Below the pieces are notes generated by a model. That model did not search any database and was not told the DNA's origin. It worked only from the letters and a program-made list of their open reading frames with translations. Below are positions 1-30,356 of a stretch of 64,000 nucleotides of DNA, piece after piece. Origin of the DNA: an uncultured Spirochaetales bacterium. Its GTDB lineage: Bacteria; Spirochaetota; Spirochaetia; SPDA01; CAZSGZ01. Numbering within the stretch: position 1 is the stretch's first letter; every line of letters starts with the position of its first letter. The position numbers were made by a program, and so were the translations under genes. Location of the stretch: contig CAYTSI010000005.1 of NCBI GenBank assembly GCA_964440465.1, forward strand, positions 151-64,150, given 5' to 3'.

Positions 1-736
1 CTTCGGTAATGCCGCCGTCGGTGATAAAGGCGTCGAAATCTTTTAAATCGGCGAAGTGGGTTGAATGCACCTTCCCGATTTTTGATGAATCGGCAACGAG
101 GATCGAAGATATACTCGAATCGATAATCGCCTTTTTTGTTTCCATCTCGTACTGGTTTGGGCAGGTAACGCCTAGATCTTTGCTGATTCCCCCGGCGGAG
201 ATAAAAGCTTTCGACGCCCTGGACCGCCGTATCAGGGAGATCCCCTCGGGGCTTTCAAACATCATCGTATTTTCATGAAGATATCCCCCGGCGAAGATGA
301 CGCGGCAGTTCTTCTTTTTCTGCAATTCCGCGAGGATGTTGAAAGAGTAGCAGATTACCGTCAGCGGCAGGTCCGCGGGAATGGAGCGCGCGATGTATTC
401 GGTAGTGGACCCGGCATCGATGCTGATAACGTCCTCCGCTTCGATGAGGGACGCGGCGTACCGGCCGATGGCTGCTTTTTCTTTCGTCTGTTTCGATCCC
501 GCCGTGATAAGGGAATAACTGATTTCACCCGATGGCGGTCCGCTGTTCTGGGCCGGATTTAAGACCGCGCCGCCGTGAAGGAGCTGGATGTAGTTTTGAT
601 CCTCGAGTTCCTGCAGGTCCCGCCGGATAGTCATGTGGGAAACGCCGAGCTTGTCGGCAAGTTCGTTTACCGACGCGGCATTATAAATCCGGAGAATTTT
701 CAGTATTTCATCTAACCGTTCCTTTTTATCGGCCAT
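1..736 (-). CDS. DeoR-family transcriptional regulator (HTH + sugar-phosphate sensor domain), C-terminal end truncated by window edge
   Basis: Reverse-strand translation from ATG at 736: MADKKERLDEILKILRIYNAASVNELADKLGVSHMTIRRDLQELE... then DeoR C-terminal motifs (ISIDAGSTT, ILVADSSKIGK). Not in ORF track because it runs off the window. Divergent from BMC operon. Confidence 0.8.
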   Translation of the reverse strand, partial: MADKKERLDEILKILRIYNAASVNELADKLGVSHMTIRRDLQELEDQNYIQLLHGGAVLNPAQNSGPPSGEISYSLITAGSKQTKEKAAIGRYAASLIEAEDVISIDAGSTTEYIARSIPADLPLTVICYSFNILAELQKKKNCRVIFAGGYLHENTMMFESPEGISLIRRSRASKAFISAGGISKDLGVTCPNQYEMETKKAIIDSSISSILVADSSKIGKVHSTHFADLKDFDAFITDGGITE

Positions 737-751
737 TTCCCCCGCCTTTAC

Positions 752-781
752 TTGACAAAAATGTATTATGGAATGTAAAAT
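752..781 (+). promoter_or_regulatory. Candidate sigma70-like promoter for BMC operon (TTGACA-18 nt-TAAAAT)
   Basis: ttgaca at 752-757, taaaat at 776-781, in AT-rich divergent intergenic region upstream of first shell gene. Confidence 0.3.
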
Positions 782-792
782 AACTATCAATA

Positions 793-829
793 TATGTTAA
801 CAAAATACCATCGTTATGTTAAAATTATA
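793..829. promoter_or_regulatory. Direct repeats TATGTTAA(C/A)AA(A/T)ATA spaced 22 bp; candidate operator (DeoR-type regulators bind direct repeats)
   Basis: tatgttaacaaaata (793-807) and tatgttaaaattata (815-829) between divergent deoR and BMC operon. Confidence 0.2.
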
Positions 830-860
830 ACGTAAAACCAAGAAAAAGAAAAGGGAAGGG

Positions 861-1508
861 ATGAAAATTATGAATAATATTGATTTACGGACCTATATCT
901 ACTTAGATTCACTGCAGCCGCAGATGGCATCGTATATATCCACCATTTCCCGGGGATATTTTCCGGTGGCAGGTCAGGCGTGTATGGTCGTGGAGATCTC
1001 GCCGGGTATCGAGATCAACCGGCTGACGGACATCGCTTTAAAAGCGACGAACGTACGGCCTGGAATACAAATCGTCGAGCGGCTGTTCGGGCTCTTAGAG
1101 CTCCATTCCGACAGTCAGGCCGACGCGCGGCAGTCGGGGGAGTCGATCCTGAAAGAGCTCGACTTAACCGAAGCGGACAGGATGAAGCCGACGGTACTGA
1201 CCAGTCAGCTGATAAAAAACGTGGACGACCATCACGCTCAGCTTATCAATAAAGTGCGCTACGGCAACATGATCCTCCGGGGGGACACCCTCTATGTACT
1301 GGAGCTGCAGCCGGCGGGATATGCCTATTACGCCGCGAACGAGGCGGAAAAGGCCTCGCATATAAATATTATCAACGTGCAGGGCTACGGCAGTTACGGC
1401 CGTATTTATATAGCGGGACCGGAAGCGGAAGTTCTGGTCAGCCAGCAGATTGTTGAATCCCGCCTTTTGTCGTTAAGCGGCAGGGAAGCGGGCGGTAAAA
1501 AAGAATAA
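861..1508 (+). CDS. BMC shell protein, tandem permuted BMC-T (PduB/EutL-like)
   Basis: 215 aa, two-domain; C-terminal half aligns to EutL permuted BMC domain (GDtlYvLelqPagYayyAaneaeKAshi...RIYIAGPEAEV vs EutL GDpmaYLvapPleatYgidAalKSAdvq...fLTGSQAA). GGAAGGG RBS. First gene of shell operon. Confidence 0.55.
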   Translation: MKIMNNIDLRTYIYLDSLQPQMASYISTISRGYFPVAGQACMVVEISPGIEINRLTDIALKATNVRPGIQIVERLFGLLELHSDSQADARQSGESILKELDLTEADRMKPTVLTSQLIKNVDDHHAQLINKVRYGNMILRGDTLYVLELQPAGYAYYAANEAEKASHINIINVQGYGSYGRIYIAGPEAEVLVSQQIVESRLLSLSGREAGGKKE

Positions 1509-1536
1509 CTAAAAGAATAACTAAAAGAATAACTAG
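1501..1536 (+). repeat. 12-bp tandem repeat AAGAATAACTAA x3 giving three in-frame TAA stops between BMC-T and BMC-H
   Basis: aagaataactaa aagaataactaa aagaataactag; first TAA is the stop of the 861..1508 ORF, followed by AGAGGAG RBS of next gene. Confidence 0.6.
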
Positions 1537-1547
1537 AGGAGAAAAAA

Positions 1548-1856
1548 ATGGCAGAGGTATTTGAAAACGCATTGGGAATGATCGAAACAAAGAGCTTCGC
1601 CGCGATGGTTGAAGCATCGGACGCCATGGTCAAGGCGGCAAGGGTTGAACTGACGAACTGGGTCAACACAGGCGGCGGTTATGTAACATCCATCGTCCGG
1701 GGCGATGTCGCAGCGGTACGGGCGGCCTTAGACGCGGGCGGCCGGGCGGCTGAAAAAGTCGGTGAACTGATCAGCGTTCATATTATTCCCCGTCCCCATG
1801 ACAATGTGGACAGCGCGCTTCCGTTGGGACGGACACCGCAGGGCGGAAAGAAATAG
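1548..1856 (+). CDS. BMC-H hexameric shell protein (PduA/EutM family)
   Basis: ALGMIETKSFAAMVEASDAMVKAARVEL...GGGYVTSIVRGDVAAVRAALDAG...GELISVHIIPRPH is the canonical BMC-domain signature. Confidence 0.9.
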   Translation: MAEVFENALGMIETKSFAAMVEASDAMVKAARVELTNWVNTGGGYVTSIVRGDVAAVRAALDAGGRAAEKVGELISVHIIPRPHDNVDSALPLGRTPQGGKK

Positions 1857-1860
1857 GTAG

Positions 1861-2160
1861 ATGGTACTCGCGAAAGTAGTCGGAACGGTTGTAGCTACCC
1901 GAAAAGAGCCGAAGATCGAAGGGATAAAATTCCTGCTGATAGAAAAACTGGACCCGGCAACCATGAAGGGAAAAAAAGACTTTCTCGTGGCCATGGACAG
2001 TGTCGGCGCCGGTCCCGGAGAGGTTGTCTTTTACGTGTCCGGAAGTTCGTCGAGAATGACCGCGACGACGGAGGGCAAACCGAGCGACGCGACCATAACG
2101 GCGATCGTGGACGTAATCGAAATGGACGGGAAGACCGTTTATCACAAGGACAGGCCTTAA
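1861..2160 (+). CDS. BMC-P pentameric vertex protein (EutN/PduN/CcmL family) paralog 1
   Basis: [15 protein letters not shown]...KFLLI....[23 protein letters not shown] motif pattern of EutN/CcmL fold. Confidence 0.85.
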
Positions 2161-2163
2161 GCG

Positions 2164-2451
2164 ATGATTTTTGCACAAACTGTGGGAACGGTGGTGAGCA
2201 CCGCCCGAAGCGATGAGATAGAAGGGGCGAAATTCCTTTTAGTGCGGGAATGCAGCTACAAAGGAGAACTTTCTGACAATTACATGATCGCCCTCGACGC
2301 GGTGCAGACCGGCCCGGGAGAGATGGTCCTCATTGCCCAAGGCAGTTCCTGCCGTCAGACGGAAAACACCTTCCAGAAGCCGGTGGATGCCCTGATTGTG
2401 GGAATCGTCGATTCCATAGACGAGGGAGGGGACCTTGTCTTTAGAAAGTAA
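2164..2451 (+). CDS. BMC-P pentameric vertex protein paralog 2
   Basis: MIFAQTVGTVVSTARS...KFLLV...ALDAVQTGPGEMVLIAQGSSCR. Confidence 0.85.
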   Translation: MIFAQTVGTVVSTARSDEIEGAKFLLVRECSYKGELSDNYMIALDAVQTGPGEMVLIAQGSSCRQTENTFQKPVDALIVGIVDSIDEGGDLVFRK

Positions 2452-3790
2452 GACCGCTGTCCGTCTCGCGGAGGCGGTCCGGGAGGCGGGTATCGTCGGC
2501 GCCGGCGGCGCCGGCTTCCCCACCCATAAAAAGCTCGGCGGGACCTGCCGCACGGTAATTGCCAACGGAGCCGAGTGTGAACCCCTTCTGCAGAGCGACA
2601 AATACATTATGGAAACGGAGGCGGAGAAAATCGCCGCCGCCCTCGAGCTTGCGGTGAATGAACTGCGGGCGGAAGAGGGGATTATCGCGGTAAAGGAGAA
2701 GAACAGCCGGGCTGTGGAGCGGCTCGAAGCAGCGGCGGCATCAAGGGTTGCTCTGTCCCTCTATCACCTTGAAAACTTCTATCCAGCGGGGGACGAGCAT
2801 GTGTTAGTCCATGAGATAACCGGAAAGGTAGTGCCCGAGGGGGGTATCCCGATTGCCGTGGGTGTTGTTGTCCTGAATGTGGAAACGCTGTTGAACATCT
2901 GCAACGCGGTATATGAATCGGCCCCGGTCACCCTGCGCACCGTTACCTGTACGGGAGAGGTGAAGACGCCGAAGGTGCTGCGGGTTCCGGTCGGTACGGC
3001 CATGCGGGACGTAATTCATGAGTGCGGGGGTGCTCTGGTGGAAGAACCCGCTATAATCATCGGCGGACCGATGATGGGAAAGGTCACCACCGATGTAGAT
3101 ACGCCGGTTGATAAACTGACCGGCGGAATTATCGTTTTGCCGAGGGACCACGATTGCATTCAACGGAAAACACGGCCGTTAGAAGTGCAGGTGCGGCTCT
3201 CGCGGAGCGCCTGCTGTCAGTGCGTACTGTGCAGCGAGCTCTGTCCCCGGGAGATGCTCGGGCATAATCTGTATCCGCACTTAATTATGCGGCAGATCAA
3301 TTACGGTCTTGATTTGCCGGAAGAAGCGCTGGCAGCGGCGGCGCTCTGCTGTGAATGCGGAGTGTGCGAGGTGTTCGCGTGTCCTATGGGGCTTTCCCCC
3401 TCCTTTATCAACGGAATTATCAAACAGCGGTTTGCCGAGGGGGGGTACAAGCCGGAGTTCCCCGACAGGGAGCCTAAGCCGCATGAGATGCGGGAATACC
3501 GCAAGGTGCCGGCACAGCGGATAATAGGCCGTTTGCGGCTTAACCGCTACGACGAGCCGATGTATGACCGGGGAGGCGCCGTTACACCGGAACGGGTTGA
3601 ATTGCCGCTGCGGCAGCACATCGGGGCGCCGGCGGTGCCGGTGGTTTCCCCCGGGGCAGCGGTGAAACGGGGAGACTTAATCGGGGAAATTCCCGAAGGG
3701 AGCTTAGGGGCACGGGTGCACGCCTCGGTTACGGGGACCGTTACACTGGTGGAGGAAAGCCGGATACTTATTACGGCATCAGGGGCATAA
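2435..3790 (+). CDS. PduS-like / RnfC-like flavoprotein with two 4Fe-4S clusters (BMC-associated oxidoreductase)
   Basis: 451 aa; GAGGAGFPTHKK nucleotide-binding motif; CCQCVLCSELCP and CCECGVCEVFACP ferredoxin motifs; C-terminal RnfC-type barrel-sandwich domain. Same length and domain content as Salmonella PduS (from memory). Confidence 0.75.
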   Translation: MSLESKTAVRLAEAVREAGIVGAGGAGFPTHKKLGGTCRTVIANGAECEPLLQSDKYIMETEAEKIAAALELAVNELRAEEGIIAVKEKNSRAVERLEAAAASRVALSLYHLENFYPAGDEHVLVHEITGKVVPEGGIPIAVGVVVLNVETLLNICNAVYESAPVTLRTVTCTGEVKTPKVLRVPVGTAMRDVIHECGGALVEEPAIIIGGPMMGKVTTDVDTPVDKLTGGIIVLPRDHDCIQRKTRPLEVQVRLSRSACCQCVLCSELCPREMLGHNLYPHLIMRQINYGLDLPEEALAAAALCCECGVCEVFACPMGLSPSFINGIIKQRFAEGGYKPEFPDREPKPHEMREYRKVPAQRIIGRLRLNRYDEPMYDRGGAVTPERVELPLRQHIGAPAVPVVSPGAAVKRGDLIGEIPEGSLGARVHASVTGTVTLVEESRILITASGA

Positions 3791-3793
3791 CAT

Positions 3794-4345
3794 ATGGAAT
3801 ACAGCGTAATCGGAGTACTTGAATTTTCGGCAACGGCGGCGGGCATTCTGGCCTTAGACAGCATGGTGAAGGCCGCGCCGGTGAAAATTATCGACGCGAA
3901 AACGATTTGTCCCGGCAAGTTCTATATTATCGTTACCGGAGACGTTGCCTCGGTTGATGCCGCGCTGACGGCGGGCAAAAAAGCGGGCGAGGGGTACTTG
4001 ATCGACGAGCTCTTTATTACCAACCTGCAGGAGCAGGTAATTCCGGCCATTTTAGGAACGGTGGAAACGACGAAGTGGGAATCTTTAGGCGTTATCGAAT
4101 CGTTTTCCATTGTGTCGAGTATCGTCGCGGGGGATTTGGCGGCGAAAGCGGCGGCGGTGGAGCTGCCTGAAATCAGGCTTGCTACGGGAATGGCGGGTAA
4201 ATCGTATGTAAAGATGATCGGGACGGTGCATGAGGTGGAGGTCTCCATGAAGGCGGCGAAAGAGTATGTGGGAAAGCAGGGCCTGTTATGTAAGGACGTT
4301 ATTATTCCCCACGCGCACCCGGAAATGAAGCCGTTTATTTTATAG
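3794..4345 (+). CDS. BMC-T tandem shell protein, PduT-like (possible Fe-S binding pore Cys in CPGK)
   Basis: 183 aa, two BMC domains (GVLEFSATAAGILALDSMVKAA...; SLGVIESFSIVSSIVAGDLAAKAAAVEL...); size/organisation as PduT. Confidence 0.75.
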   Translation: MEYSVIGVLEFSATAAGILALDSMVKAAPVKIIDAKTICPGKFYIIVTGDVASVDAALTAGKKAGEGYLIDELFITNLQEQVIPAILGTVETTKWESLGVIESFSIVSSIVAGDLAAKAAAVELPEIRLATGMAGKSYVKMIGTVHEVEVSMKAAKEYVGKQGLLCKDVIIPHAHPEMKPFIL

Positions 4346-4369
4346 GCACGGCGGAGGTAGGATACAGAT

Positions 4370-5815
4370 ATGCAGATAGATGAAAAAACGATACGGACGG
4401 TTGTCGAAGAGGTGTTAAAAGAGGTGAGCGCGGCGGCGGTGTCGTCCGCCTCGCCGCCCCGGACCCCTTCCCCGGCAGCCTCCTCTACATATCAGGGCTC
4501 ATTCAGTACCATGGACGCAGCCGTGCGCGCGGCGCATCAGGCGCATCTGGATTTAATGAACACGACGCTGGAAATACGGAGAAAAATGATCGATGCCATG
4601 CGGGAGACCATATGGTCCAATCTTTTTGTCCTGTCAAAAAAAGCGGTGGAGGAGACCGGCTTCGGCCGCACCGACGACAAGGTGAAGAAAAACCTTCTCG
4701 CGGCGAAGATGACACCCGGTGTGGAGGATTTAACGCCGACATCGTATACGGATGACCACGGACTTACCCTGACCGAACTCGCACCCTACGGCGTTATCGG
4801 GGCGATTGCTCCGAGTACGAACCCGACGGAGACGATTATCAGCAATGCCATTGGAATGGTAGCAGGCGGAAACACGGCGGTGTTTGGTCCCCACCCGGCC
4901 GCGAAGGAAGTTTCGAAATATACCATCTGCTTGTTAAACACGGCCATTCAGAAAGCCGGCGGACCGGCAAATGTTCTTACAACGGTGGACGAACCGACCA
5001 TCGAGGCCGCCCAGACGATGATGGACCATCCTCTCGTTTCGCTCTTAGTCGTGACCGGCGGCCCGGGAGTAGTAAAAGAGGCGATGAAACGGGCGAAAAA
5101 GGTCATTGCCGCGGGACCGGGGAACCCGCCGGTGGTGGTGGATGAAACCGCGGACATCGTGAAGGCCGGGAAAGATATCGTCGCGGGCGCGGGTTTGGAC
5201 AACAACATCATCTGTATTGACGAGAAAGAAGTCCTGGCGGTGGACTCTATTGCCGATCAGCTGAAGGCGGAAATGAAGAAAAACGGCGCCTTTGAACTGG
5301 ACCGGCAGCAGGCGGAGGCCCTGACGAAAATCGTCATTTCCGATCCCGGACGGCCGGGGCATGAAGGAATGGCGAATAAAAAATACGTGGGAAAAAACGC
5401 GTCCGTATTGGCGGACCTCATCGGCCTGAAGGTCCCCGAAGATACGCGCATCCTCATTGCCGAAGTCGACCGCGACCATCCGATGGTATGGACGGAACAG
5501 CTGATGCCCTTTATTCCGCTGGTGCGGATGAAGAGCGCCGATGAGGCGATCGATTTTGCCGTAGAATGCGAACACGGGTTTCGGCACACGGCAAGCATGC
5601 ATTCGAAAAACATCGAGCGGCTCTCAAGGATGGCGAAAGTCATGAACTGTTCCCTCTTTGTAAAAAACGGTTCGAATTTTAACGGCATGGCCTTCGGCGG
5701 CGCGGGCTACACCTCCTTTACCATTGCCAGTCCCACCGGCGACGGCTTTACCCGGGCGAGGACCTTTACCCGGGAACGGCGGTGTTCGCTCATTGATTAT
5801 TTTCGGATTGTGTAG
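4370..5815 (+). CDS. CoA-acylating aldehyde dehydrogenase (PduP/EutE family) with N-terminal encapsulation-peptide-like helix and P/S-rich linker
   Basis: 481 aa; ALDH fold motifs (VVTGGPGVVKEAMKRAKKVIAAGPGNPPVVVDETAD, NNIICIDEKEV); N-term MQIDEKTIRTVVEEVLKEV followed by AAAVSSASPPRTPSPAASS linker. Confidence 0.85.
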   Translation: MQIDEKTIRTVVEEVLKEVSAAAVSSASPPRTPSPAASSTYQGSFSTMDAAVRAAHQAHLDLMNTTLEIRRKMIDAMRETIWSNLFVLSKKAVEETGFGRTDDKVKKNLLAAKMTPGVEDLTPTSYTDDHGLTLTELAPYGVIGAIAPSTNPTETIISNAIGMVAGGNTAVFGPHPAAKEVSKYTICLLNTAIQKAGGPANVLTTVDEPTIEAAQTMMDHPLVSLLVVTGGPGVVKEAMKRAKKVIAAGPGNPPVVVDETADIVKAGKDIVAGAGLDNNIICIDEKEVLAVDSIADQLKAEMKKNGAFELDRQQAEALTKIVISDPGRPGHEGMANKKYVGKNASVLADLIGLKVPEDTRILIAEVDRDHPMVWTEQLMPFIPLVRMKSADEAIDFAVECEHGFRHTASMHSKNIERLSRMAKVMNCSLFVKNGSNFNGMAFGGAGYTSFTIASPTGDGFTRARTFTRERRCSLIDYFRIV

Positions 5816-5840
5816 GTTAAGGAAAATAGGAAGTGATGGA

Positions 5841-6113
5841 ATGAAATTAGGGAAAGTAATCGGAACGGTGGTGAGTACACAAAAGGTGGAGTCCTTCGAG
5901 GGGGTAAAGCTTCTTTTAGTACAGCCGTTAGATGAAAATTACGACGAGAAAGGCGGACCCTTAGCGGCGTGTGATACCGTTCAGGCGGGAGTTGGAGACA
6001 TTGTCCTTTATGAAGGCGGCCGGGAAGCCGCCCTGACGCTGGAAAACTGGTACAATCCGTCGGACGCGGCGGTAATGGCTATTGTCGACAGTACAAACCT
6101 GGAGGCAACCTAA
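5841..6113 (+). CDS. BMC-P pentameric vertex protein paralog 3
   Basis: MKLGKVIGTVVSTQKVESFEGVKLLLVQPL...CDTVQAGVGDIVLYEGGREA; start chosen at ATG 5841 (track ORF 5724 overlaps ALDH). Confidence 0.85.
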   Translation: MKLGKVIGTVVSTQKVESFEGVKLLLVQPLDENYDEKGGPLAACDTVQAGVGDIVLYEGGREAALTLENWYNPSDAAVMAIVDSTNLEAT

Positions 6114-6388
6114 TGCTTGTGGCTAAAGTAATCGGAACGGTTGTCGCCACGCGGAAGCATCCCGTTTTACAGGGGTATAAGCTGTTAATTGTGCAGCCGA
6201 AGGGGCCTGACGGAACGGATGCCGGCGGGATCGAGATTGCCCTCGATACGGTACAGGCAGGGACCGGCGAAACGGTGCTGCTGTTGACGGAGGGCAACTC
6301 TTCGAGGATGATTATCGGCGACGACATGGCCCCGGTACGTGCGGTGGTGGTCGGCATTATCGATGAGGTACAGTACGATGCAGTATAA
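6113..6388 (+). CDS. BMC-P pentameric vertex protein paralog 4
   Basis: [29 protein letters not shown]...ALDTVQAGTGETVLLLTEGNSSR. Confidence 0.85.
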   Translation: MLVAKVIGTVVATRKHPVLQGYKLLIVQPKGPDGTDAGGIEIALDTVQAGTGETVLLLTEGNSSRMIIGDDMAPVRAVVVGIIDEVQYDAV

Positions 6389-6929
6389 AAGTGATTCATC
6401 CATTGTACAAAATATCGTTTCCACGCTTCACACGGCCGCGGACCGGCCGCTTCCGGTGGAGAATACCGCGAACCAGGAAGACAAGGTCCTTCGGGTTGCC
6501 CTCGGGGCGGACCACGGCGGCTTCGAGGCGAAGGAGGCCCTGCGGGAGTATCTGAAGTCCTTAGGTTACCGTGTTACCGACGTCGGGACCGACAGTACCG
6601 AAAGCGTCGACTATCCCGATTTCGCGGTAAAGGTGGCGAAAAAAGTGGCCTCCGGGGAATGCGAGCGGGGAATTATGATCGACGGCGCGGGAATCGGATC
6701 GACGATGGTATGCAACAAGGTGCGGGGCATCCGCGCGGCGCTGTGCTACGATGTGAAAACAATCAGCAACAGCAGGGTGCACAATAACGCGAACGTGCTG
6801 TGCTTAGGCGGCCCCCTGCACGGCAGAGAGGAAATTTTTGAAATGGCAAAGCTGTGGCTAACCACGCGATTCGAGGGCGGCAGACACTGGCCGCGGATTA
6901 ATAAAATGATGGCAGTTGAACGAGGATAA
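6378..6929 (+). CDS. rpiB: Ribose-5-phosphate isomerase B (RpiB/LacAB family) with ~35-aa N-terminal extension (candidate encapsulation peptide)
   Basis: Core LRVALGADHGGFEAKEALREYLKSLGYRVTDVG...GIMIDGAGIGSTMVCNKVRGIRAALCYD...NANVLCLGG is RpiB; N-terminal MQYKSDSSIVQNIVSTLHTAADRPLPVENTANQEDK precedes the core. Start ambiguous (6339/6378). Confidence 0.8.
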   Translation: MQYKSDSSIVQNIVSTLHTAADRPLPVENTANQEDKVLRVALGADHGGFEAKEALREYLKSLGYRVTDVGTDSTESVDYPDFAVKVAKKVASGECERGIMIDGAGIGSTMVCNKVRGIRAALCYDVKTISNSRVHNNANVLCLGGPLHGREEIFEMAKLWLTTRFEGGRHWPRINKMMAVERG

Positions 6930-6941
6930 GAGGATAGACAG

Positions 6942-7820
6942 ATGGAGCAGAAAGATTTAGTAGAAAAATTGACGAAAGAGGTTATCGCGCGGCTTACGCA
7001 GGAAGGCAGCGGCGTTACAGGCGGCGCGCCTGCAGGCGGCAGCAGGACAACGGCCTCCGGCGGCGTCGGCGGCAATATGGGCGGCGGCCGGTCATCGGGC
7101 GCCGTACAGGAAGGCGGCTCGGCTCAGGCGGCCGGTTCCGGGGAGCTCCGTCCCTCCGACCTCAATAAATATATCGACCACACTCTGCTCAAACCGGAGG
7201 CGACGAAAGAGCAGATCGACAAGCTCTGCGATGAGGCGAAGGAATACTCTTTTTATTCGGTATGCGTCAACTCGAGCTGGGTGGAATACTGCGCGAAAAA
7301 ACTCCGCGGAAGCGGAGTCAAAATCAGTGCCGTAGTGGGGTTCCCCTTAGGCGCCATGGAAGGCCGTGCGAAGGGTTATGAAACAAGACACGTCGTCGAG
7401 GCGGGTGCCGATGAAATAGATATGGTGATGAACGTGGGCGCCCTGAAATCGGGAGACACGAAAAAGGTTGAAGAAGACATCCGCTGGGTCCGCCGGTCCA
7501 CCCGGCAGAAGACGGTTGTAAAAGTAATTATCGAAGCGGCCCTGCTGACCGATGACGAGAAGGTGCTCGCCTGTCAGATTTCGAAAAACGCCGGCGCCGA
7601 TTTCGTAAAAACGTCCACCGGGTTTGCAAAAGGCGGCGCCACCGCCGAAGATGTCGCCCTGATGCGGCGCACCGTCGGTCCGAAGACGGGCGTTAAAGCT
7701 GCCGGGGGGATCCGCTCCTTCGAAGATGCTGTGAAGATGATCAATGCCGGCGCGACTCGCTTAGGCACCAGTTCCAGCGTAGAGATTGTTACGGGGCAAA
7801 AGAGCACGTCGGCGTACTAA
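6942..7820 (+). CDS. deoC: Deoxyribose-phosphate aldolase (DERA) with N-terminal amphipathic helix plus ~50-aa Gly/Ser-rich linker (encapsulation peptide)
   Basis: Core YIDHTLLKPEATKEQI...SVCVNSSWV...VVGFPLG...DEIDMVMNVGALKSG...VKVIIEAALLTDDEKV...GADFVKTSTGF is DeoC; N-term MEQKDLVEKLTKEVIARLTQEG then SGVTGGAPAGGSRTTASGGVGGNMGGGRSSGAVQEGGSAQAAGSG. Confidence 0.85.
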   Translation: MEQKDLVEKLTKEVIARLTQEGSGVTGGAPAGGSRTTASGGVGGNMGGGRSSGAVQEGGSAQAAGSGELRPSDLNKYIDHTLLKPEATKEQIDKLCDEAKEYSFYSVCVNSSWVEYCAKKLRGSGVKISAVVGFPLGAMEGRAKGYETRHVVEAGADEIDMVMNVGALKSGDTKKVEEDIRWVRRSTRQKTVVKVIIEAALLTDDEKVLACQISKNAGADFVKTSTGFAKGGATAEDVALMRRTVGPKTGVKAAGGIRSFEDAVKMINAGATRLGTSSSVEIVTGQKSTSAY

Positions 7821-7907
7821 AGACCGGACACCAGCCTCCCAAAAAGGTCCGGCGAAACGCGAAACGCTAATATTGACAACCAGTATTCAAATCGCTATCG
7901 TTATCAT

Positions 7908-8276
7908 ATGGGGACGTTTCATATCAGCTGTAAAGTAGAAAACCATATTGACCGCGGGAAAAATACTACAGTTAAAAACCTATTAGTAGACACCGGAAGC
8001 GGATTTACCTGGCTCCCCGCCTCGGAACTGGAGAACATCGATGTTGCCCGTGAGAAAAAAGATCTGCCTTTTATTATGGCAAACGGTCAAAGGATTACCA
8101 GGGACGCCGGCTTCGCGATCATCCGTGTAGAAGACCATTTCACCATTGATGAGGTTGTATTCGCGGAGGAAGGGGACTTGCTGCTGTTAGGCGCCCGCAC
8201 TTTAGAAGGACTGAACCTCCGGGTCGATTCGGTCCGGAAGAAACTCGTGGCCGCCGGACCGCTCCCGGCCGCGTAG
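7908..8276 (+). CDS. Retropepsin-like (clan AA) aspartic peptidase domain protein
   Basis: LLVDTGSGFTWLP contains the D-T/S-G catalytic motif in a ~120-aa single-domain protein typical of bacterial retropepsin-like proteases. Confidence 0.55.
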   Translation: MGTFHISCKVENHIDRGKNTTVKNLLVDTGSGFTWLPASELENIDVAREKKDLPFIMANGQRITRDAGFAIIRVEDHFTIDEVVFAEEGDLLLLGARTLEGLNLRVDSVRKKLVAAGPLPAA

Positions 8277-8286
8277 AATCTCCCTG

Positions 8287-8517
8287 TTGCCCCGCCGAGT
8301 CCTCTTTGGTATGATGGGACGGGAGATGGACAATACTCCAAAGAAAGCTCCGAACTGCCTGAAATGCCGTTTTTTTTCGGTTTCCTGGGACAGACGTTAC
8401 CCCCGGGCATGTTCCGTATTTGGTATTAAATCGAAGCAGCTTCCCAGCATGGAGGTATACCGGGCCACCGGGCGGCATTGTCCAATGTTTCAAAAATCCG
8501 AAAAAATAAAGGACTAA
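8287..8517 (+). CDS. Hypothetical small Cys-containing protein
   Basis: 76-aa ORF (CLKC...C...HCP); no recognisable family; start uncertain. Confidence 0.3.
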   Translation: MPRRVLFGMMGREMDNTPKKAPNCLKCRFFSVSWDRRYPRACSVFGIKSKQLPSMEVYRATGRHCPMFQKSEKIKD

Positions 8518-8533
8518 ACTGAAGGAATACATC

Positions 8534-9682
8534 ATGAATAGAGAACGAAAAAAAAGGCGGACACTAAAAAAGAGCGGGCCGATGATGTCCCGCCTGTACG
8601 GAGACACCGGCGTTAACGTTTCCGCGTTAGGTTTCGGCGGGATGCGGTTTGAGAAACCGGACGATATCGAGCATTCCGCCGAGACGGTGTTCCACGCCTT
8701 CGAGCGGGGGATTACCTATTTCGATACGGCGCCGGGGTATTTCGACGGTAAGTCGGAGGAGGCCGTCGGTACGGCGGTAAACGAGATGAAGAAAACCGGC
8801 AGGCCTTTTTATATATCCACGAAATCAAACAAGGCGGACGGTGCCGTGGTCCGGAAAGAGCTGGAAGAAAGCCTGAAGCGGCTGAATCTCGACTGTATCG
8901 ATTTTTATAACTGCTGGTACGTACTGACATTAGAGGATTGGGAAAAACGGAAAAACGGCGGGGCAGTGGAAGCAATTCTAAAGGCGCGGGACGAGGGGCT
9001 TGTCCGCTTTCCGGTATTTTCCACCCACCTTCCGGGAGACGCGGTACGTACGGTCATTGAAGAGGGATATTTCCGCGGCGTTACCCTCGGCTATTCGGCC
9101 ATCAATTTTCCCTACCGGGAAGAGGGGATACGGGCAGCCGGAGAGAACAATCTCGGTGTTGTCGTTATGAACCCCTTAGGGGGAGGAACAATTGTAAACA
9201 ATGCCGATGCCTTTCAATTTATCAAACGGGACAGCAAACAGACCGTTTTAGAGGCGGCCCTTCATTTTCTCTGGGCCCACGATGAAATTACGGTCGCGTT
9301 AGTAGGATGCAGGAACAAGTCCGATGTGGACGATGCCGCTGCCGCCGCGGCATCGTACGTACCCTATTCGGACGAAGATATCTCTAAAATAAAGAAGAAC
9401 ATTACCCGGGACTTCAACCAGCTGTGTACAAGCTGTACCTACTGTGATGTTTGTCCCGAAGACATCCCTGTCTGGAAGTTTGTGGAAACTGCAAACCATG
9501 TTATTTTAGGCTCTTCCGCGTCACTGTCCGGACGACTGAAATACTACTGGGGGGCTGATCCGACGGCCATGGAGCGGTGTATCCGGTGCGGGCAGTGTGA
9601 AAGTGCCTGCACCCAGCATATACCGATTATGGAACGGTTTGAGATGCTGAAAACAGCATTGACGGAGGAACCTACAAAGTAA
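8534..9682 (+). CDS. Aldo/keto reductase fused to C-terminal 2x[4Fe-4S] ferredoxin domain
   Basis: AKR N-terminal region (GFGGMRF..., DTAPGY) and C-terminal CTSCTYCDVCPEDIP / CIRCGQCESACTQHIP cluster motifs; GAAGGAA RBS before 8534. Confidence 0.75.
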   Translation: MNRERKKRRTLKKSGPMMSRLYGDTGVNVSALGFGGMRFEKPDDIEHSAETVFHAFERGITYFDTAPGYFDGKSEEAVGTAVNEMKKTGRPFYISTKSNKADGAVVRKELEESLKRLNLDCIDFYNCWYVLTLEDWEKRKNGGAVEAILKARDEGLVRFPVFSTHLPGDAVRTVIEEGYFRGVTLGYSAINFPYREEGIRAAGENNLGVVVMNPLGGGTIVNNADAFQFIKRDSKQTVLEAALHFLWAHDEITVALVGCRNKSDVDDAAAAAASYVPYSDEDISKIKKNITRDFNQLCTSCTYCDVCPEDIPVWKFVETANHVILGSSASLSGRLKYYWGADPTAMERCIRCGQCESACTQHIPIMERFEMLKTALTEEPTK

Positions 9683-9795
9683 CAGCGCCGAAAAATGGCT
9701 GTAGCTTTGTCTGAGTACAGATGATGTCCCCGCGTGCAGCCGAAAAGAGGATATATCCCGGAAGATTTGATAAATCACTTGCAGATTAGCCGAAA

Positions 9796-10953
9796 TTGTA
9801 TCAAAATAGAGGTATGGAAGAAAGAAAAGTATTAATAAAAGATTTCGAGAAAAAAATCCAATCCAATGAGGAAAAAATCAGGCTGCTGCTGATACAAACG
9901 GGTGAATACCTCTTTGCAAAGGCGAAAAAAGATACCCGGTCCGCGGCGCAGGATGATTATGATGCCGCGAAACGGCAGCTGGATTCCCTGGAACAATACA
10001 AGGACAGCAAAAAACGGATTCTTGCCATTCTCGAACGGCTTTCTGAGATTAAAGAAGAGATGACCAATTCCGGCGGGCAGATTGAGATCATAGAACGGGC
10101 GAATCTGCCGGTATATGAAGTCATAGGAGAAAAGGCCTACGAACACCTGCGTCATGATCCGTCCCGGTATAATCAGTACAGCGATGTATTTGTGGATGTC
10201 AATAATCAGATAGAGGACATTGAAAATATAGAAAATGACATTGAAGCAATACACGCGCAGAAAAAGCAGCGTAAATTCTTTGAAAAAATTGCGGACACCG
10301 GTCAGGTAACCTATTTAAAGGGGATCAAGATGGTCCGGGCAAAAACAATGCCCCGGCTGTACCGGGAGGCCGGGCAAAAGCTCACGGAAACCAATTTTTT
10401 GGAAACAACAGGAAACGAAGAAATCGTAAGCGCCGCCGGACCGTACCTGCAGAACAAAGAAAAATTGAAGGAACTGCATACCCGGATGGAGCATCTCTCG
10501 GAAGAGGAAAAGAGTTTAGAGTCGGAACTGATCAATTTAGGAGTGGACAAACGGGCAGACCGGCGAACGGACGAACTCGACCGGAATATTGCCGCTGCCC
10601 AGGAGAAATACACGGAAAAGCTTCTCGCGATTGCCCGGAAGGTGCGGGAAAACACCCCGGAGGCAATTGCCTCACTGTCGGACTATAAAGAATTTCTCAA
10701 AGAAATCGCGAAATGCGAAAAGCAGAATGATCAATACCGGGAAAATATTACAAAACTCAACGCGGCAATTGAGGCGGATAATTGTGCCCGCCAGCTTGAA
10801 AGAATGAATGAAAGTATCGGCGACCGCGAGCGGCGTATTCGGGAGTACGAACAGGAAATAGAAGACCTGCAAAAACGGATAGCGGAAACGGAGAAAGAGA
10901 AAAAGCGCTACGAGGAAATCAGGGGTCCTAAGGAACTGACACTTCAGTCGTAA
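9796..10953 (+). CDS. Coiled-coil protein of unknown function (alt. start ATG 9814)
   Basis: E/K/Q-rich heptad-like sequence throughout; no catalytic motifs recognised. Confidence 0.45.
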   Translation: MYQNRGMEERKVLIKDFEKKIQSNEEKIRLLLIQTGEYLFAKAKKDTRSAAQDDYDAAKRQLDSLEQYKDSKKRILAILERLSEIKEEMTNSGGQIEIIERANLPVYEVIGEKAYEHLRHDPSRYNQYSDVFVDVNNQIEDIENIENDIEAIHAQKKQRKFFEKIADTGQVTYLKGIKMVRAKTMPRLYREAGQKLTETNFLETTGNEEIVSAAGPYLQNKEKLKELHTRMEHLSEEEKSLESELINLGVDKRADRRTDELDRNIAAAQEKYTEKLLAIARKVRENTPEAIASLSDYKEFLKEIAKCEKQNDQYRENITKLNAAIEADNCARQLERMNESIGDRERRIREYEQEIEDLQKRIAETEKEKKRYEEIRGPKELTLQS

Positions 10954-10990
10954 TGTCTGCCCGCGGCATCCCATAACAACCTTCCACTGA

Positions 10991-11030
10991 CAGCCCGTTC
11001 GGATAACTCCGGCCGGGCTGCTCTTTTTTG
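10991..11030 (+). terminator. Rho-independent terminator after coiled-coil gene
   Basis: cagcccg...cgggctg stem followed by ctcttttttg. Confidence 0.5.
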
Positions 11031-11046
11031 TAAGCTGTGATAGGAT

Positions 11047-12174
11047 ATGTTCCGTATGAACCGGTTTACGATGTGCGCGGCAGCCGACTTTCACCTCGGC
11101 ATGAGGTTCTCTTCCTACCCTTCTGTGCAAAAGGAGCTGATACGGGCGAGGTTTTCCGCGCTCCGGCGGGTGGTGGACCGGGCAAATGCCGAACAATGCG
11201 CTCTTCTTGTGATAGCGGGAGATTTGTTTGATCGTATCAACATCCCGGTAAAAGAAGCGGAGGAAGTGATAGAAATTCTCGGCGGATTTCAGGGTGATTG
11301 CATTGCGGTTTTACCGGGTAACCACGATTATTTCAGCGGTGCAAAGAGCGGTGTCTGGAAAACCGTTACGGAGAATGGACCGGATAACCTCCTGCTGCTG
11401 TCGGAGAAGAAAAAATACTACCTCAATGATTTCCATTTGCCGGTTGTTTTATATGCCGGCCCATGCAGTTCTCAGCACGGACGTGAAAACGCGGTATCGT
11501 GGATCGGCCCGGCGGACCGAAAGGACAGAGAATTGTTTCATATAGGGGTAGCCCACGGCAGCATTGAGGGGATTTCCCCCGACGTAACCAAGCAGTATTT
11601 CCCGATGAACAGGAAGCAGCTGGAGTCCGCCGGTCTCGATTTGTGGATTATCGGGCACACCCATATACCCTTCCCGGAGCGGGAGGAAACGGTATCGCCT
11701 TTTATTATACCCGGCACACCCGAACCGGACGGTTTTGATTCCGGCGGGGACGGAGCTGCTTGGATTATTTCGGTAAATGATAACAAGGCGGTACACAAGA
11801 AGCGGTTTACTGCCGGCTCATACCGTTTTACGCGGCAGATAAAGGAAATACACTCCGCCGGGGACATTGAGGAGGCGGTCCGTGAAATGAGCGGAACGGC
11901 CGGTCCTTCCGTTCTCCTGCAGCTGAAACTGCGGGGCACTCTTGTGAAGGGCGATTTTCCCCTTTTAGGTCCGGCAATGGAAGAATTGGCACAGCGGTTT
12001 TTTTATACGGATATTGATACGGAAAGCGTGAAAACAAAGCTGACCCCCGGAGAAATCGGCAATGAATTCCGGGAAGGGACCTTTCCCTATATTCTTCTTT
12101 CCCGTCTCTCCGAGTACGGCGATACCGAGGCGCTCGAGCGGGCTTACAGGATCCTAGAGGAGATGAGGAAATGA
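11047..12174 (+). CDS. sbcD: SbcD/Mre11-like calcineurin-family metallophosphoesterase (DNA repair exonuclease, YhaO-like)
   Basis: Phosphoesterase motifs AAADFHLG, VIAGDLFD, LPGNHD, GHTH; overlaps downstream ATPase gene by 4 bp. Confidence 0.7.
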   Translation: MFRMNRFTMCAAADFHLGMRFSSYPSVQKELIRARFSALRRVVDRANAEQCALLVIAGDLFDRINIPVKEAEEVIEILGGFQGDCIAVLPGNHDYFSGAKSGVWKTVTENGPDNLLLLSEKKKYYLNDFHLPVVLYAGPCSSQHGRENAVSWIGPADRKDRELFHIGVAHGSIEGISPDVTKQYFPMNRKQLESAGLDLWIIGHTHIPFPEREETVSPFIIPGTPEPDGFDSGGDGAAWIISVNDNKAVHKKRFTAGSYRFTRQIKEIHSAGDIEEAVREMSGTAGPSVLLQLKLRGTLVKGDFPLLGPAMEELAQRFFYTDIDTESVKTKLTPGEIGNEFREGTFPYILLSRLSEYGDTEALERAYRILEEMRK

Positions 12175-23192: not shown

Positions 23193-23561
23193 ATGCCGTT
23201 TAGTATTTTGGAAAAAGACAGGAAGACATTTGAATATTTTAAAAAATACGTTGAGTTTTTAGAGCTCGAGGAAAACACCTGTCTCATCCTTGACAACAAG
23301 ATACAATCCGAGGAAATCCAGGAGCATTTGCGCCGGACCGGTCATAACAGCGGAATGGATGGAAGGAAAAAAGAGATTATTTCACAGTGGATTAAAGAAA
23401 ATGCCCGTCCGTTCCGGGATTATCTGAACAGCATCAAACTTGCCTATGTCGTATGGAAATGCATGGGCAAAGAATGGTCCGAGATAACCTGGGAAGAGTT
23501 CTTCAAAATCGAAGAGCGCCTCAATTCCCTCAAGTACAAATGTCTCGATACGATTTTTTAA
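23193..23561 (+). CDS. Hypothetical protein
   Basis: 122-aa ORF, no recognisable motifs. Confidence 0.3.
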   Translation: MPFSILEKDRKTFEYFKKYVEFLELEENTCLILDNKIQSEEIQEHLRRTGHNSGMDGRKKEIISQWIKENARPFRDYLNSIKLAYVVWKCMGKEWSEITWEEFFKIEERLNSLKYKCLDTIF

Positions 23562-25399: not shown

Positions 25400-25444
25400 A
25401 GGACATCCTTTCTTACATATAGAATTTTTAATATATTGATTAAT

Positions 25445-25720
25445 TTACATCGATTTTATCAATTGTTCAAGTCTGTTTTCGGTAATAATTGAACCGGCAC
25501 TGACCTGTTTTCCCCGAACAAGAAGGGCGGGAAACTGATGAATTTCAACACCGGGTACCGTGCATTCTTCATCCGCCCGGAGTTTTACATGATTTATTTG
25601 TATATCGGGATGTTTGGTCTGTATCTCACGCAATACTTCACGAACAATTTGATCGCTAATTGTGCAGGAAGCGCAATGCTGGTCTTTTGAAACAAGGGTA
25701 ATGGTAACAGGTTCAGCCAT
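25445..25720 (-). CDS. Small thioredoxin-fold redox protein (CxxC)
   Basis: 91 aa, HCASC motif and FPALLVRGKQVSAG resembling small redox-active disulfide proteins. Confidence 0.45.
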   Translation of the reverse strand: MAEPVTITLVSKDQHCASCTISDQIVREVLREIQTKHPDIQINHVKLRADEECTVPGVEIHQFPALLVRGKQVSAGSIITENRLEQLIKSM

Positions 25721-26651
25721 TTCCTTCTATTGTACACGCTTTAATGCTTTGCGCAAGAGATTCTTCGCTGATGCTGCCGCGGATAAGGACGATTTTGCTG
25801 CTGTTTGCTTCGAGAAGCGCGGGAACAGGGGGTTTTTCGGAATAGACGCCGTCAATAATTTCAAAGTACTTCGGACCTTCGGGAAAGCGGAGGACCCCTT
25901 TGCCACGGAGTATTTCCGGTTGTATTTTTTTAATATACGCCTCCCATTTCCCCCGGTCGAGGAGGGCTTTCAGTTCAATACTGAAAGAGAAAAAATTATC
26001 CGGCGGTGTATCGCTGCATTTTTCGGGGACATCCTTCTGCCGCGGCGCGATTTCTTCCAGTGCGTCCCGGGAAACTTCCCCGAAACGGGCGGGAAAGATG
26101 GGGGCGGATTCATTATGTTCCCGCAGAAGCTTTTCCGTTTCTTCCAACCGCTCCGGCGTTACCGTGTCGACTTTATTCAGAATAAAGGCGTCGGCGTATT
26201 CTGCCTGGATCTGTACCGCCTCTAAGGTGGCCTCGACTTTATGAAAATTCGCCGCGTCGATAACACAGAAATTCTGTTCCAGTGATATCAGCTTATCGAG
26301 CCCGTCGAGGCGCATCATGGCATACATATCATCCACCCGGGCGATCCCGGTTGCTTCGATAAGGAGAAAATCGGGCCGCGTCTTCTCCGCTATGTTTTTC
26401 AGCTCCGCGATAAAATCGGTGCGCATGCATACGCAGAAAATGCTGCCCTTGTTGAGTTCGATTTTGTAAAAATCGCCCTCCCGTACCAGGGCGCCGTCAA
26501 TCCCGATGGACCCGAACTCATTAATCATCACCGCGAGTTTTCCGCCCCGGGTACTGTACCATTCGATAAGCCGGTTAATAAGTGTCGTTTTCCCGGCGCC
26601 TAAGAACCCCGTAACCAGGACGGTTTTAATTAGAGGATAGCTTTGATCCAT
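25713..26651 (-). CDS. CobW/COG0523-family metallochaperone GTPase
   Basis: VTGFLGAGKTTL P-loop, CVC metal-binding motif, ~310 aa. Confidence 0.75.
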   Translation of the reverse strand: MDQSYPLIKTVLVTGFLGAGKTTLINRLIEWYSTRGGKLAVMINEFGSIGIDGALVREGDFYKIELNKGSIFCVCMRTDFIAELKNIAEKTRPDFLLIEATGIARVDDMYAMMRLDGLDKLISLEQNFCVIDAANFHKVEATLEAVQIQAEYADAFILNKVDTVTPERLEETEKLLREHNESAPIFPARFGEVSRDALEEIAPRQKDVPEKCSDTPPDNFFSFSIELKALLDRGKWEAYIKKIQPEILRGKGVLRFPEGPKYFEIIDGVYSEKPPVPALLEANSSKIVLIRGSISEESLAQSIKACTIEGNG

Positions 26652-28249: not shown

Positions 28250-28388
28250 TATATTCTCCTTACATATGAATATACAAAAATTGCCGCTCTGGAGAAAGGA
28301 TGATCTTTCTAATTTTTGTAATTCCTCTTCCTCCGTCCCCTCATTTATGGTATTTTAGCTGTGGACCCGCAAAATAGAAGGAGAAGAT

Positions 28389-29285: not shown

Positions 29286-29299
29286 CAAAAGGACGGAAC

Positions 29300-30349: not shown

Positions 30350-30356
30350 CCGCGGC

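Follow-up and report, generated by a model that had tools for sequence, protein, structure and literature searches.

Sugar-phosphate-utilising (SPU) bacterial microcompartments (BMCs) have been described by Axen 2014 (PMC4207490), Sutter 2021 (PMC8217296) and Dwyer 2024 (PMC11585597). Encapsulation peptides (EPs), defined by Kinney 2012 and Aussignargues 2015 (PMC4594438), target proteins to the shells of Pdu and Eut compartments (PMC4594438) and of archaeal SPU-type compartments (PMC12747264). Dwyer, Sutter and Kerfeld reported EPs on the SPU deoxyribose-5-phosphate aldolase (DERA), the ribose-5-phosphate isomerase homologue (RPI) and the aldehyde dehydrogenase (AldDH), as well as a DERA-RPI complex; the AldDH EP is N-terminal in all SPU subtypes except SPU6 (PMC11585597). 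A 2025 preprint on a Hodarchaeales SPU-type system described the EP-dependent recruitment of GFP-tagged enzymes to shells (PMC12747264).

In this study we examined a locus of an uncultured Spirochaetales bacterium, contained in a window of 64,000 nucleotides, which is the whole stretch of DNA that was analysed. An initial annotation, made from the sequence alone, had pointed to N-terminal extensions on DERA, RpiB and AldDH. All three extensions are real, with approximately 70, 37 and 40 residues, respectively, and they very probably represent encapsulation peptides within an SPU operon. This observation of cargo tails is correct but already known, as it was published for SPU systems in 2024; the analysis of the raw sequence re-derives that finding and adds little new biology.

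Organisation of the locus

A DeoR-family regulator (1..736, reverse strand) was identified by the Pfam domains HTH_DeoR and DeoRC and is also called on identical contigs; its C-terminal end is cut by the start of the window, and it is divergent from the BMC operon. All further features given here are on the forward strand and follow in gene order. The first is a BMC-T(dp), a tandem shell protein of the CsoS1D/CcmP type (861..1508). It had no match in the Pfam copy searched across the locus proteins and was recognised through PF27545 (CsoS1D_N), which is assigned to the identical protein encoded on public contigs. Next come a BMC-H hexamer shell protein (1548..1856; PF00936, E = 1.9e-28), a pair of BMC-P pentamer genes (1861-2160 and 2164-2451; PF03319, E = 1e-25 and 2e-24) and a PduS-like flavoprotein/Fe-S protein (2435..3790) with Complex1_51K, SLBB, Fer4_17 and RnfC_N domains. 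An N-terminal extension was sought in the PduS-like protein and none was found, the Complex1_51K domain beginning at residue 15. The next gene encodes a PduT-like BMC-T(s) (3794..4345) with two BMC domains and a Cys in the pore motif TICPGK; it matches PDB 3nwg (E = 6e-39) and PduT 3n79 (E = 4e-31), with the CPGK cysteine aligned. An acylating AldDH of the PduP/EutE type (4370..5815; PF00171), the closest solved structures of which are the BMC aldehyde dehydrogenases 5jfl and 4c3s, precedes a second pair of BMC-P pentamer genes (5841-6113 and 6113-6388; PF03319, E = 5e-26 and 2e-26). The gene for a 183-aa RpiB-like protein (6378..6929; PF02502 at residues 40-177) overlaps the end of the upstream BMC-P gene by 11 nt, and lies 12 nt upstream of the gene for the signature enzyme, DERA (6942..7820; 292 aa; PF01791; PDB 5dbu, E = 9.5e-80, 271 bits).

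The operon is an SPU bacterial microcompartment. DERA (PF01791) and an acylating AldDH are encoded with BMC-H, BMC-T and BMC-P shell genes, the BMC-P paralogues number at least three (four here), and an RPI (PF02502) with the Cys66-to-Asp replacement adjoins DERA. A scan of the rest of the window found no phosphotransacylase or nucleoside-catabolic genes, and no RNA families were found in positions 1-12000. A downstream aldo-keto reductase was also considered; its apparent N-terminal extension is best explained by a later Met, and is not EP-like.

D160, K194 and K223 of DERA are invariant in an alignment of 52 sequences. Judging by the conserved motifs EIDMV, KVIIE and FVKTSTGF, they are the probable counterparts of E. 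coli D102, K167 and K201, and through these motif-based counterparts the enzyme has the Schiff-base Lys and the Asp/Lys catalytic residues of a class I DERA (DeoC). The initial annotation had described DERA and RpiB as a pentose-phosphate enzyme pair, which is imprecise: DERA is an enzyme of deoxyribose-5-phosphate catabolism and not of the pentose-phosphate pathway. The RpiB-like protein is without the catalytic Cys. Compared with the Clostridium thermocellum RpiB 3he8, it reads GIMIDGAGIG instead of GIVICGTGLG, so that Asp replaces the catalytic Cys and Ala the neighbouring Thr. The Cys (E. coli Cys66) and Thr of the G-x-x-x-C-G-T-G motif of competent RpiB are thus missing, and Asp occupies the Cys position in 120 of 120 orthologues; the His-Asn and Arg phosphate-site motifs are kept. 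Cys66 is changed to Asp in all SPU RPIs, and the SPU6 homologue has little or no ribose-5-phosphate isomerase activity (PMC11585597). The packaged RpiB-like protein is probably not a working RpiB, and would most likely serve as a co-packaged DERA-binding partner or scaffold, not as a ribose-5-phosphate isomerase.

N-terminal extensions on three proteins of the operon

The AldDH extension of about 40 residues is located at 4370 to approximately 4500, outside the interval 6378-7200 which the initial annotation had given for all three. Its candidate EP helix (residues 2-19, QIDEKTIRTVVEEVLKEV; 4373..4426) was delimited by the hydrophobic moment and by the consensus ME-I-D-E-x-x-I-R-x-x-V-E-E-V of 120 orthologues. 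Within it, KTIRTVVEEVLKEV (residues 6-19) is the most amphipathic 14-mer of the protein (rank 1 of 468), reached by 1.2% of shuffles (p = 0.012). The Pro/Ser-rich linker announced behind this peptide was found as a Ser/Ala/Pro-rich stretch of about 25 aa (residues 20-42; 4427..4495), defined by composition and conservation, with 84% G/S/A/P/T, 0.92 bits per column and 25% gaps among the orthologues.

The RpiB-like extension, proposed to be about 35 aa long, measures 37-38 aa, since residue 39 aligns to residue 2 of 3he8 and the PF02502 domain begins at residue 40. A putative targeting motif (residues 8-22, SIVQNIVSTLHTAAD; 6399..6443) was assigned from the orthologue motif, the hydrophobic moment and AlphaFold2. 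Residues 8-18 (SIVQNIVSTLH) are conserved, 114 of 120 orthologues carry a motif of the h-h-x-N-h-h-S type, the modal extension being 38 aa, and the hydrophobic moment of the peptide ranks 2 of 170 (shuffle p = 0.02). AlphaFold2 draws residues 11-22 as a helix, with a pLDDT of only about 42. The linker (residues 23-37; 6444..6488), delimited by composition and conservation, is polar/acidic and about 15-20 aa long; it contains 35% G/S/A/P/T and has 1.56 bits per column, compared with 3.71 bits in the core. Among the three peptides, this one makes the poorest case for a classical EP: its conserved motif covers only about 11 residues, its polar face is uncharged and its model is of low confidence.

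For DERA, about 85 extra residues had been announced. In alignments with solved DERAs of 220-223 aa, residue 73 corresponds to residues 2-5, and the Pfam DeoC domain begins at residue 77, which reduces the extension to about 68-72 aa. The predicted architecture, a helix followed by a Gly/Ser/Ala-rich linker of about 50 aa, was borne out. In the AlphaFold2 model, residues 3-22 form a helix (pLDDT 84-87), residues 23 to about 68 are disordered (pLDDT 44-50) and the core begins at residue 71. The candidate EP helix (QKDLVEKLTKEVIARLTQEG; 6948..7007) is backed by this model and by the motif M-D/N-x-x-E-L-V-x-x-I-T-x-x-V-L-A-K/R-L, found in approximately 115 of 120 orthologues, and conservation reaches at least 90% at L6, T11 and V14. 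The linker (residues 23-70; 7008..7151), recognised by its composition, pLDDT and conservation, comprises about 49 aa, of which 18 are Gly, 7 Ser and 7 Ala, and shows 1.08 bits per column and 32% gaps among orthologues, in which the core motif lies 45 to 109 residues from the start. DNA tandem repeats behind this Gly-rich linker were sought and none were found.

The general features announced for all three extensions hold in part. Amphipathicity was supported by shuffling for the AldDH and RpiB-like peptides and not for the DERA helix, whose hydrophobic moment at 100 degrees was not significant (p = 0.14) and was stronger at 90 degrees. Likewise, the linkers of DERA and AldDH are of low complexity, and that of the RpiB-like protein is not.

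The decisive evidence that these extensions exceed chance is their conservation. With 120 orthologues per enzyme, the helices have 2.5-2.9 bits per column, the linkers 0.9-1.6 and the cores 3.4-3.7. The helix motifs occur in nearly all orthologues, and as peptide motifs they persist across phyla in proteins that share 50-60% overall identity, while the linkers drift in both length and sequence.

An independent statistic, genome-wide in scope, ties the DERA extension to shell genes. Among 80 GTDB loci, an extension of 30 aa or more was found in 29 of the 30 DERA genes linked to shell genes, the lone exception being cut by a contig end, and none of the 32 short DERAs has a shell gene in the fetched flanks of up to 10 kb on each side (Fisher p = 2e-8, 80 genomes). 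Eighteen DERA genes bear an extension without a shell gene in the fetched stretch; some of these come from short contigs, others may belong to satellite loci.

Encapsulation and alternative explanations

By sequence and structure prediction, these observations fit the description of EPs, least clearly in the helix of the RpiB-like protein. The extensions are missing from solved non-BMC homologues, whose starts fall at about residue 70 of DERA and about residue 38 of the RpiB-like protein, and are likewise absent from the solved non-compartment homologues of AldDH. A helix is predicted in DERA, by AlphaFold2 and with conserved hydrophobic positions, and in AldDH, by its top hydrophobic moment, and a poorly conserved linker of variable length separates helix and functional domain. 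The layout typical of BMC cargo, as had been proposed, is supported by the conserved helix, the drifting linker, the shell-operon context and the association with shell genes. From these features we infer that the three tails very probably direct their enzymes into the protein shell. By analogy with Pdu, Eut and other SPU-type systems, the hydrophobic face of the helix would dock on shell proteins or bundle with other cargo tails during assembly, and the flexible, fast-evolving linker would tether the helix to the catalytic domain. Within the shell, the AldDH would be expected to convert trapped acetaldehyde to acetyl-CoA, and NADH may be re-oxidised by the PduS/PduT pair.

The AldDH and DERA peptide profiles are alike (hhalign probability 87%). 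A single motif common to all three peptides is not claimed, as the RpiB-like motif matches the AldDH and DERA profiles weakly (hhalign 32% and 3%). It is conceivable, though improbable, that SIIxNVVSxLH of the catalytically disabled RpiB-like protein represents a second, distinct class of targeting signal, whose partner (e.g. a BMC-P paralogue or BMC-Tdp) differs from the one recognised by the DERA and AldDH helices, which are charged and PduP/PduD-like. If so, the pseudo-isomerase would be a dedicated adaptor organising the cargo core.

The common AldDH/DERA profile is also compatible with hetero-bundling, and the long, Gly-rich, disordered DERA linker may resemble the tethers of condensate scaffolds. 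The extensions could act mainly as cargo-to-cargo 'glue' and not in shell docking, either by making the three proteins coalesce into a pre-shell core or by stabilising the DERA-RPI complex. In favour of such a role, SPU6 DERA is insoluble at full length, and deletion of its extension renders it soluble (PMC11585597), and EPs promote the aggregation of core proteins (PMC11585597, introduction; PMC4594438). However, the DERA-RPI complex forms even without the DERA extension (PMC11585597), and in the archaeal SPU-type system deletion of the EP abolished the interaction with shell particles (PMC12747264). Glue and shell docking are not mutually exclusive, and we regard a mainly cargo-to-cargo function as unlikely.

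Far less probable is that the helices have nothing to do with the compartment and are general amphipathic elements that serve, for example, in membrane anchoring, regulation or oligomerisation. Amphipathic N-terminal helices do also act as membrane anchors, and the weak PDB matches of the peptides are to unrelated helices, but the strict association of the extension with shell genes argues against this explanation, as do the presence of one architecture on three unrelated enzymes of a single shell operon and the cytosolic homologues without extension.

Regarding the starts of the three genes, in-frame stops lie 4-5 codons upstream of the AldDH and DERA ATGs, the same starts are used in public gene calls on identical contigs, and no alternative start codon with a ribosome-binding site was found near the domain borders of AldDH, the RpiB-like protein or DERA. 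Although starts of BMC enzymes are often mis-assigned by automated annotation (PMC11585597) and internal ATGs exist at DERA codon 46 and AldDH codon 48, the artefact of wrong starts near the domain borders, already raised by the initial annotation, is effectively refuted, since these ATGs have no ribosome-binding site and are not at a domain border, codons 2 to 60 of the RpiB-like gene contain no ATG, internal starts would open gaps of 135-140 nt in a tightly packed, partly overlapping operon, and the N-terminal motifs are conserved in orthologues across phyla. The upstream starts are thereby confirmed for three genes that are prone to truncation by annotation pipelines.

Comparison with known microcompartments

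The EPs of PduP, PduD and EutC (reviewed in PMC4594438) have in common an N-terminal amphipathic helix of about 18 aa, a poorly conserved linker and a catalytic domain, and share with the peptides found here a hydrophobic face spaced i, i+3/4, i+7; their cargo enzymes differ from those of this locus for DERA and RPI. When PDB sequences were searched with the peptides and peptide profiles, the AldDH peptide MQIDEKTIRTVVEEVLKEV aligned in register, residue 1 to residue 1, with the N-terminus MEINEKLLRQIIEDVLSEM of the diol dehydratase beta subunit (PduD-type) 1dio_B. This match is weak (E = 0.3-0.66, below significance), and is suggestive without being evidence of homology. The DERA peptide gave nothing meaningful in PDB sequences, either as an isolated peptide or as a profile.

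The Hodarchaeales SPU-type system (PMC12747264) resembles the present locus, by its description, in its DERA and AldDH pathway with predicted EPs. It differs in its archaeal host, in the fusion of DERA to a flavoprotein domain and in the position of some EPs between domains.

The closest likeness is to the SPU systems. PF01791 DERA, PF02502 RPI, PF00171 AldDH and a PduS homologue are all common to them and to this locus, as are BMC-Tdp plus BMC-Ts, multiple BMC-P paralogues, N-terminal extensions on DERA, RPI and AldDH, the Cys-to-Asp change in RPI and the adjoining RPI and DERA genes. The characterised SPU6 example, from Chloroflexi, has a DERA extension composed of a helix of about 25-30 aa and two beta strands, whereas a helix of 20 aa and a purely disordered, Gly-rich linker of 48 aa are predicted here. 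The RPI linker has about 75 aa in SPU6 and about 15-20 aa here, the AldDH EP is C-terminal in SPU6 and N-terminal here, and the four BMC-P genes are also unlike the SPU6 example. The locus provides three putative natural targeting tags of Spirochaetota-like, SPU2/3-type origin as candidates for shell engineering. By gene content, with BMC-Tdp, PduS and RPI present, PTAC absent and an N-terminal AldDH EP, it is SPU2/SPU3-like.

The operon and its surroundings

The locus is a bacterial microcompartment (BMC) of the sugar-phosphate-utilising (SPU) type, encoded on the plus strand by a single tightly packed operon (861-7820). It comprises genes for a CsoS1D/CcmP-type BMC-Tdp (861-1508), a BMC-H (1548-1856), a first BMC-P pair (1861-2160 and 2164-2451), a PduS-like flavo/Fe-S protein (2435-3790), a PduT-like BMC-T (3794-4345), an acylating aldehyde dehydrogenase (AldDH, 4370-5815), a second BMC-P pair (5841-6113 and 6113-6388), an RpiB-family protein (RPI, 6378-6929) and a DeoC-type deoxyribose-5-phosphate aldolase (DERA, 6942-7820). 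A divergent DeoR-family regulator gene, cut by the window start, lies on the minus strand (1-736) and would be consistent with a deoxyribose-phosphate inducer. Public contigs identical to the window come from microbial-mat metagenomes, and the closest named relatives are Spirochaetales/Spirochaetota MAGs.

The four BMC-P paralogues form two adjacent pairs (1861-2451 and 5841-6388). Twelve pentamers suffice for a shell, and several BMC-P genes are a recognised SPU trait. Four BMC-P types have been listed for SPU clusters (PMC12747264). The PduT-like BMC-T gene directly follows that of the PduS-like flavoprotein (2435-4345), and its conserved pore cysteine is kept (TICPGK); the pair suggests an Fe-S electron conduit through the shell, by which NADH may be recycled.

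Neither a phosphotransacylase nor nucleoside-catabolic genes were found elsewhere in the window. Two genes come immediately after DERA. One (7908-8276) encodes a 122-aa protein whose matches to retropepsin-like aspartyl proteases are weak, under Pfam cut-offs; the other (8534-9682) encodes an aldo-keto reductase whose C-terminal domain is of the 4Fe-4S dicluster type. Both are kept on the identical public contigs. Corrinoid-dependent methyl-transfer genes at 23558-31271 and 60230-61654 (RACo-type reductive activator, CobW, URO-D/MtaA-like protein, homocysteine S-methyltransferase, CobT-type phosphoribosyltransferase and MttB-family methyltransferase) have no relation to the peptides described below.

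N-terminal extensions of the three enzymes

Encapsulation peptides (EPs) are the best-supported reading of the N-terminal tails of AldDH, the RpiB-like protein and DERA. In alignments with solved DERAs of 220-223 aa, their residues 2-5 correspond to residue 73 of the protein encoded here, and the Pfam DeoC match begins at residue 77; the DERA extension is therefore about 70 residues long, shorter than the approximately 85 proposed in the initial annotation. Its layout, a helix followed by a Gly/Ser/Ala-rich linker, had been recognised correctly. In an AlphaFold2 model built with a 52-sequence alignment, residues 3-22 form a confident helix (pLDDT 84-87), residues 23-68 are disordered (pLDDT 44-50) and the TIM-barrel core begins at residue 71; the 49-residue linker contains 18 Gly, 7 Ser and 7 Ala. 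The Asp and two Lys presumed to be catalytic from the conserved motifs around them do not vary across the alignment.

Residue 39 of the RpiB-like protein aligns with residue 2 of Clostridium thermocellum RpiB, and its extension is therefore 37-38 residues long, close to the 35 or so first estimated. It consists of a SIVQNIVSTLH motif and a linker of polar/acidic composition, not the low-complexity linker that had been expected; AlphaFold2 draws a helix at 11-22 with a pLDDT of only about 42. The AldDH extension (4370 to ~4500) falls outside the interval 6378-7200 of the initial annotation and has the amphipathic start and Pro/Ser-rich linker attributed to it: KTIRTVVEEVLKEV shows the top helical hydrophobic moment among the protein's 14-mers (rank 1/468), matched by 1.2% of shuffles, and a 25-aa Ser/Ala/Pro linker follows.

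The possibility that these tails are artefacts of wrong start codons was rejected. The sole internal ATGs (DERA codon 46 and AldDH codon 48) lie within the linkers, and none of the three genes has, close to its domain border, an in-frame start codon preceded by a ribosome-binding site. In-frame stops occur 4 codons upstream of the AldDH ATG and 5 upstream of that of DERA, both ATGs being preceded by purine-rich sites at suitable spacing, while the RpiB-like ATG is preceded by GAGG and its gene shares 11 nt with the end of the BMC-P gene before it. The N-termini are conserved, and gene callers picked the same starts on the public contig copies. Automated annotation often truncates SPU extensions (PMC11585597).

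Conservation and linkage to shell genes

For each enzyme the 120 top-ranking orthologues were compared. Column information multiplied by occupancy was 3.4-3.7 bits for the cores and 2.5-2.9 bits for the helices, and fell to 0.9-1.6 bits for the linkers. Nearly all DERA orthologues share the N-terminal consensus M-(D/N/E)-x-x-(E/D)-L-(V/I)-x-x-(I/L)-T-x-x-V-(L/I/M)-x-(K/R)-L, and 45 to 109 residues, across G/S/A/P-rich sequence, separate the start from the core motif IDHTLLKP. AldDH orthologues begin with M-E-(I/V)-x-E-x-x-(I/V)-R-x-(L/I/V)-V-E-(E/Q)-V, after which come a linker that varies from ~10 to 55 residues and the conserved core start G-V-F-x-D; the motif h-h-x-N-h-h-S-x-h-H occurs in 114/120 RpiB-like orthologues (modal extension 38 residues). 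Such a conserved helix with a drifting linker is the textbook EP signature as defined in PMC4594438. Within the otherwise unconserved DERA linker, a GGN(G/M)(G/S)G micro-motif (7077-7094) recurs in 28 of 119 orthologues, which may merely reflect shared ancestry.

The AldDH and DERA peptide profiles are alike (hhalign probability 87%), and the RpiB-like motif bears no convincing resemblance to either. From residue 1 the AldDH peptide aligns with the N-terminal sequence of the diol dehydratase beta subunit (1dio_B; MEINEKLLRQIIEDVLSEM), which is equivalent to the PduD targeting sequence; with E = 0.3-0.66 this likeness is a lead, not proof.

For linkage to shell genes, one genome per GTDB species was scanned, yielding 80 DERA loci, BMC and non-BMC, which were queried with the window's shell proteins after each DERA N-terminus had been re-derived from raw DNA. 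At least 30 residues precede the core motif in 29 of 30 shell-linked DERA genes, the sole exception (L082) being truncated by its own contig end. For all 32 other short DERAs, including those of Streptococcus, Bacillus-type bacteria and Clostridium, the flanks retrieved (at most 10 kb per side) contain no shell gene (Fisher p = 2e-8; 6e-6 with only loci of at least 18 kb). A further 18 extension-bearing genes have no shell gene in the fetched stretch, several being on short contigs or beside an RpiB-like gene; satellite DERAs with EP-like extensions have been described by Sutter et al. (PMC8217296).

Many extended DERAs (Chloroflexota, Actinomycetes, Acidobacteriota, Elusimicrobia, Sumerlaeota) have no Gly/Ser linker in the stretch that joins the EP helix to the DeoC core. 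A segment with 3-7 cysteines (e.g. CxxCxxxCxxxC, Cx6CxxCxxC), followed by a conserved (V/I)(V/I)xxGAxR(I/V), is found in related loci L015-L017, L027, L032, L037, L038, L044, L049, L050, L055, L061, L065, L073, L075 and L080 and in proteins P0094 and P0111. Among 51 loci, 19 have at least three Cys, 25 the GAxR motif and 17 both. The segment could represent a small module that binds metal or an Fe-S cluster; when the 2024 SPU paper (PMC11585597) was searched as text, no mention of cysteines or metal in the DERA extension turned up.

Role of the cargo and known SPU systems

The initial annotation had proposed that a pentose-phosphate enzyme pair is packaged into the shell. Packaging remains the likely reading; the pentose-phosphate chemistry is doubtful, as Asp replaces the catalytic Cys of the RpiB-like protein, and Ala the adjacent Thr (IMIDGAGIG versus IVICGTGLG in C. 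thermocellum RpiB). All 120 orthologues have this Asp, and the protein retains its phosphate-site motifs (His-Asn and Arg). Dwyer et al. describe the substitution for all SPU RPIs, little or no R5P isomerase activity for the SPU6 homologue, and a stable 1:1 complex of DERA with RPI (PMC11585597). The RpiB-like protein is thus more likely to serve as a scaffold or partner than to carry out pentose-phosphate chemistry. At four loci (L034, L036, L062, L074) the reading frame ahead of the DERA core includes a complete RpiB-like domain that also carries the Asp; the L036 fusion (Terriglobia) has no shell gene inside 10 kb. RpiB-DERA fusions are already known for SPU3.

The hydrophobic face of the helix could bind shell proteins, bundle with other cargo tails during assembly, or both, and the flexible linker would leave the catalytic domain free. 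AldDH would capture acetaldehyde as acetyl-CoA, judging by the enzyme families and published work (PMC8217296, PMC11585597).

The helix-then-linker tails had been taken for BMC cargo-targeting peptides, and the conserved helices, the drifting linkers and the tie between DERA extension and shell genes bear this out. The initial observation and its main interpretation are correct, but already known. The SPU type was named in 2014 (PMC4207490), and in 2021 its known range grew to over 280 loci from 26 phyla (PMC8217296). In 2024, Dwyer, Sutter and Kerfeld reported that all SPU DERAs carry an N-terminal amphipathic-helix extension, whereas non-BMC DERAs do not, that SPU RPIs have a typical N-terminal EP, and that SPU aldehyde dehydrogenases bear EPs, N-terminal in all subtypes but SPU6 (PMC11585597). 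A 2025 preprint found recruitment of SPU-type enzymes to shells to be EP-dependent in Hodarchaeales (PMC12747264). By gene content we infer that the locus fits SPU2/SPU3, with which it shares BMC-Tdp, PduS, RPI, the lack of PTAC and an N-terminal AldDH EP. It departs locally from the characterised SPU6 example in just two respects: the DERA linker is fully disordered and Gly-rich, where SPU6 has a helix and two strands, and the RPI linker is much shorter.
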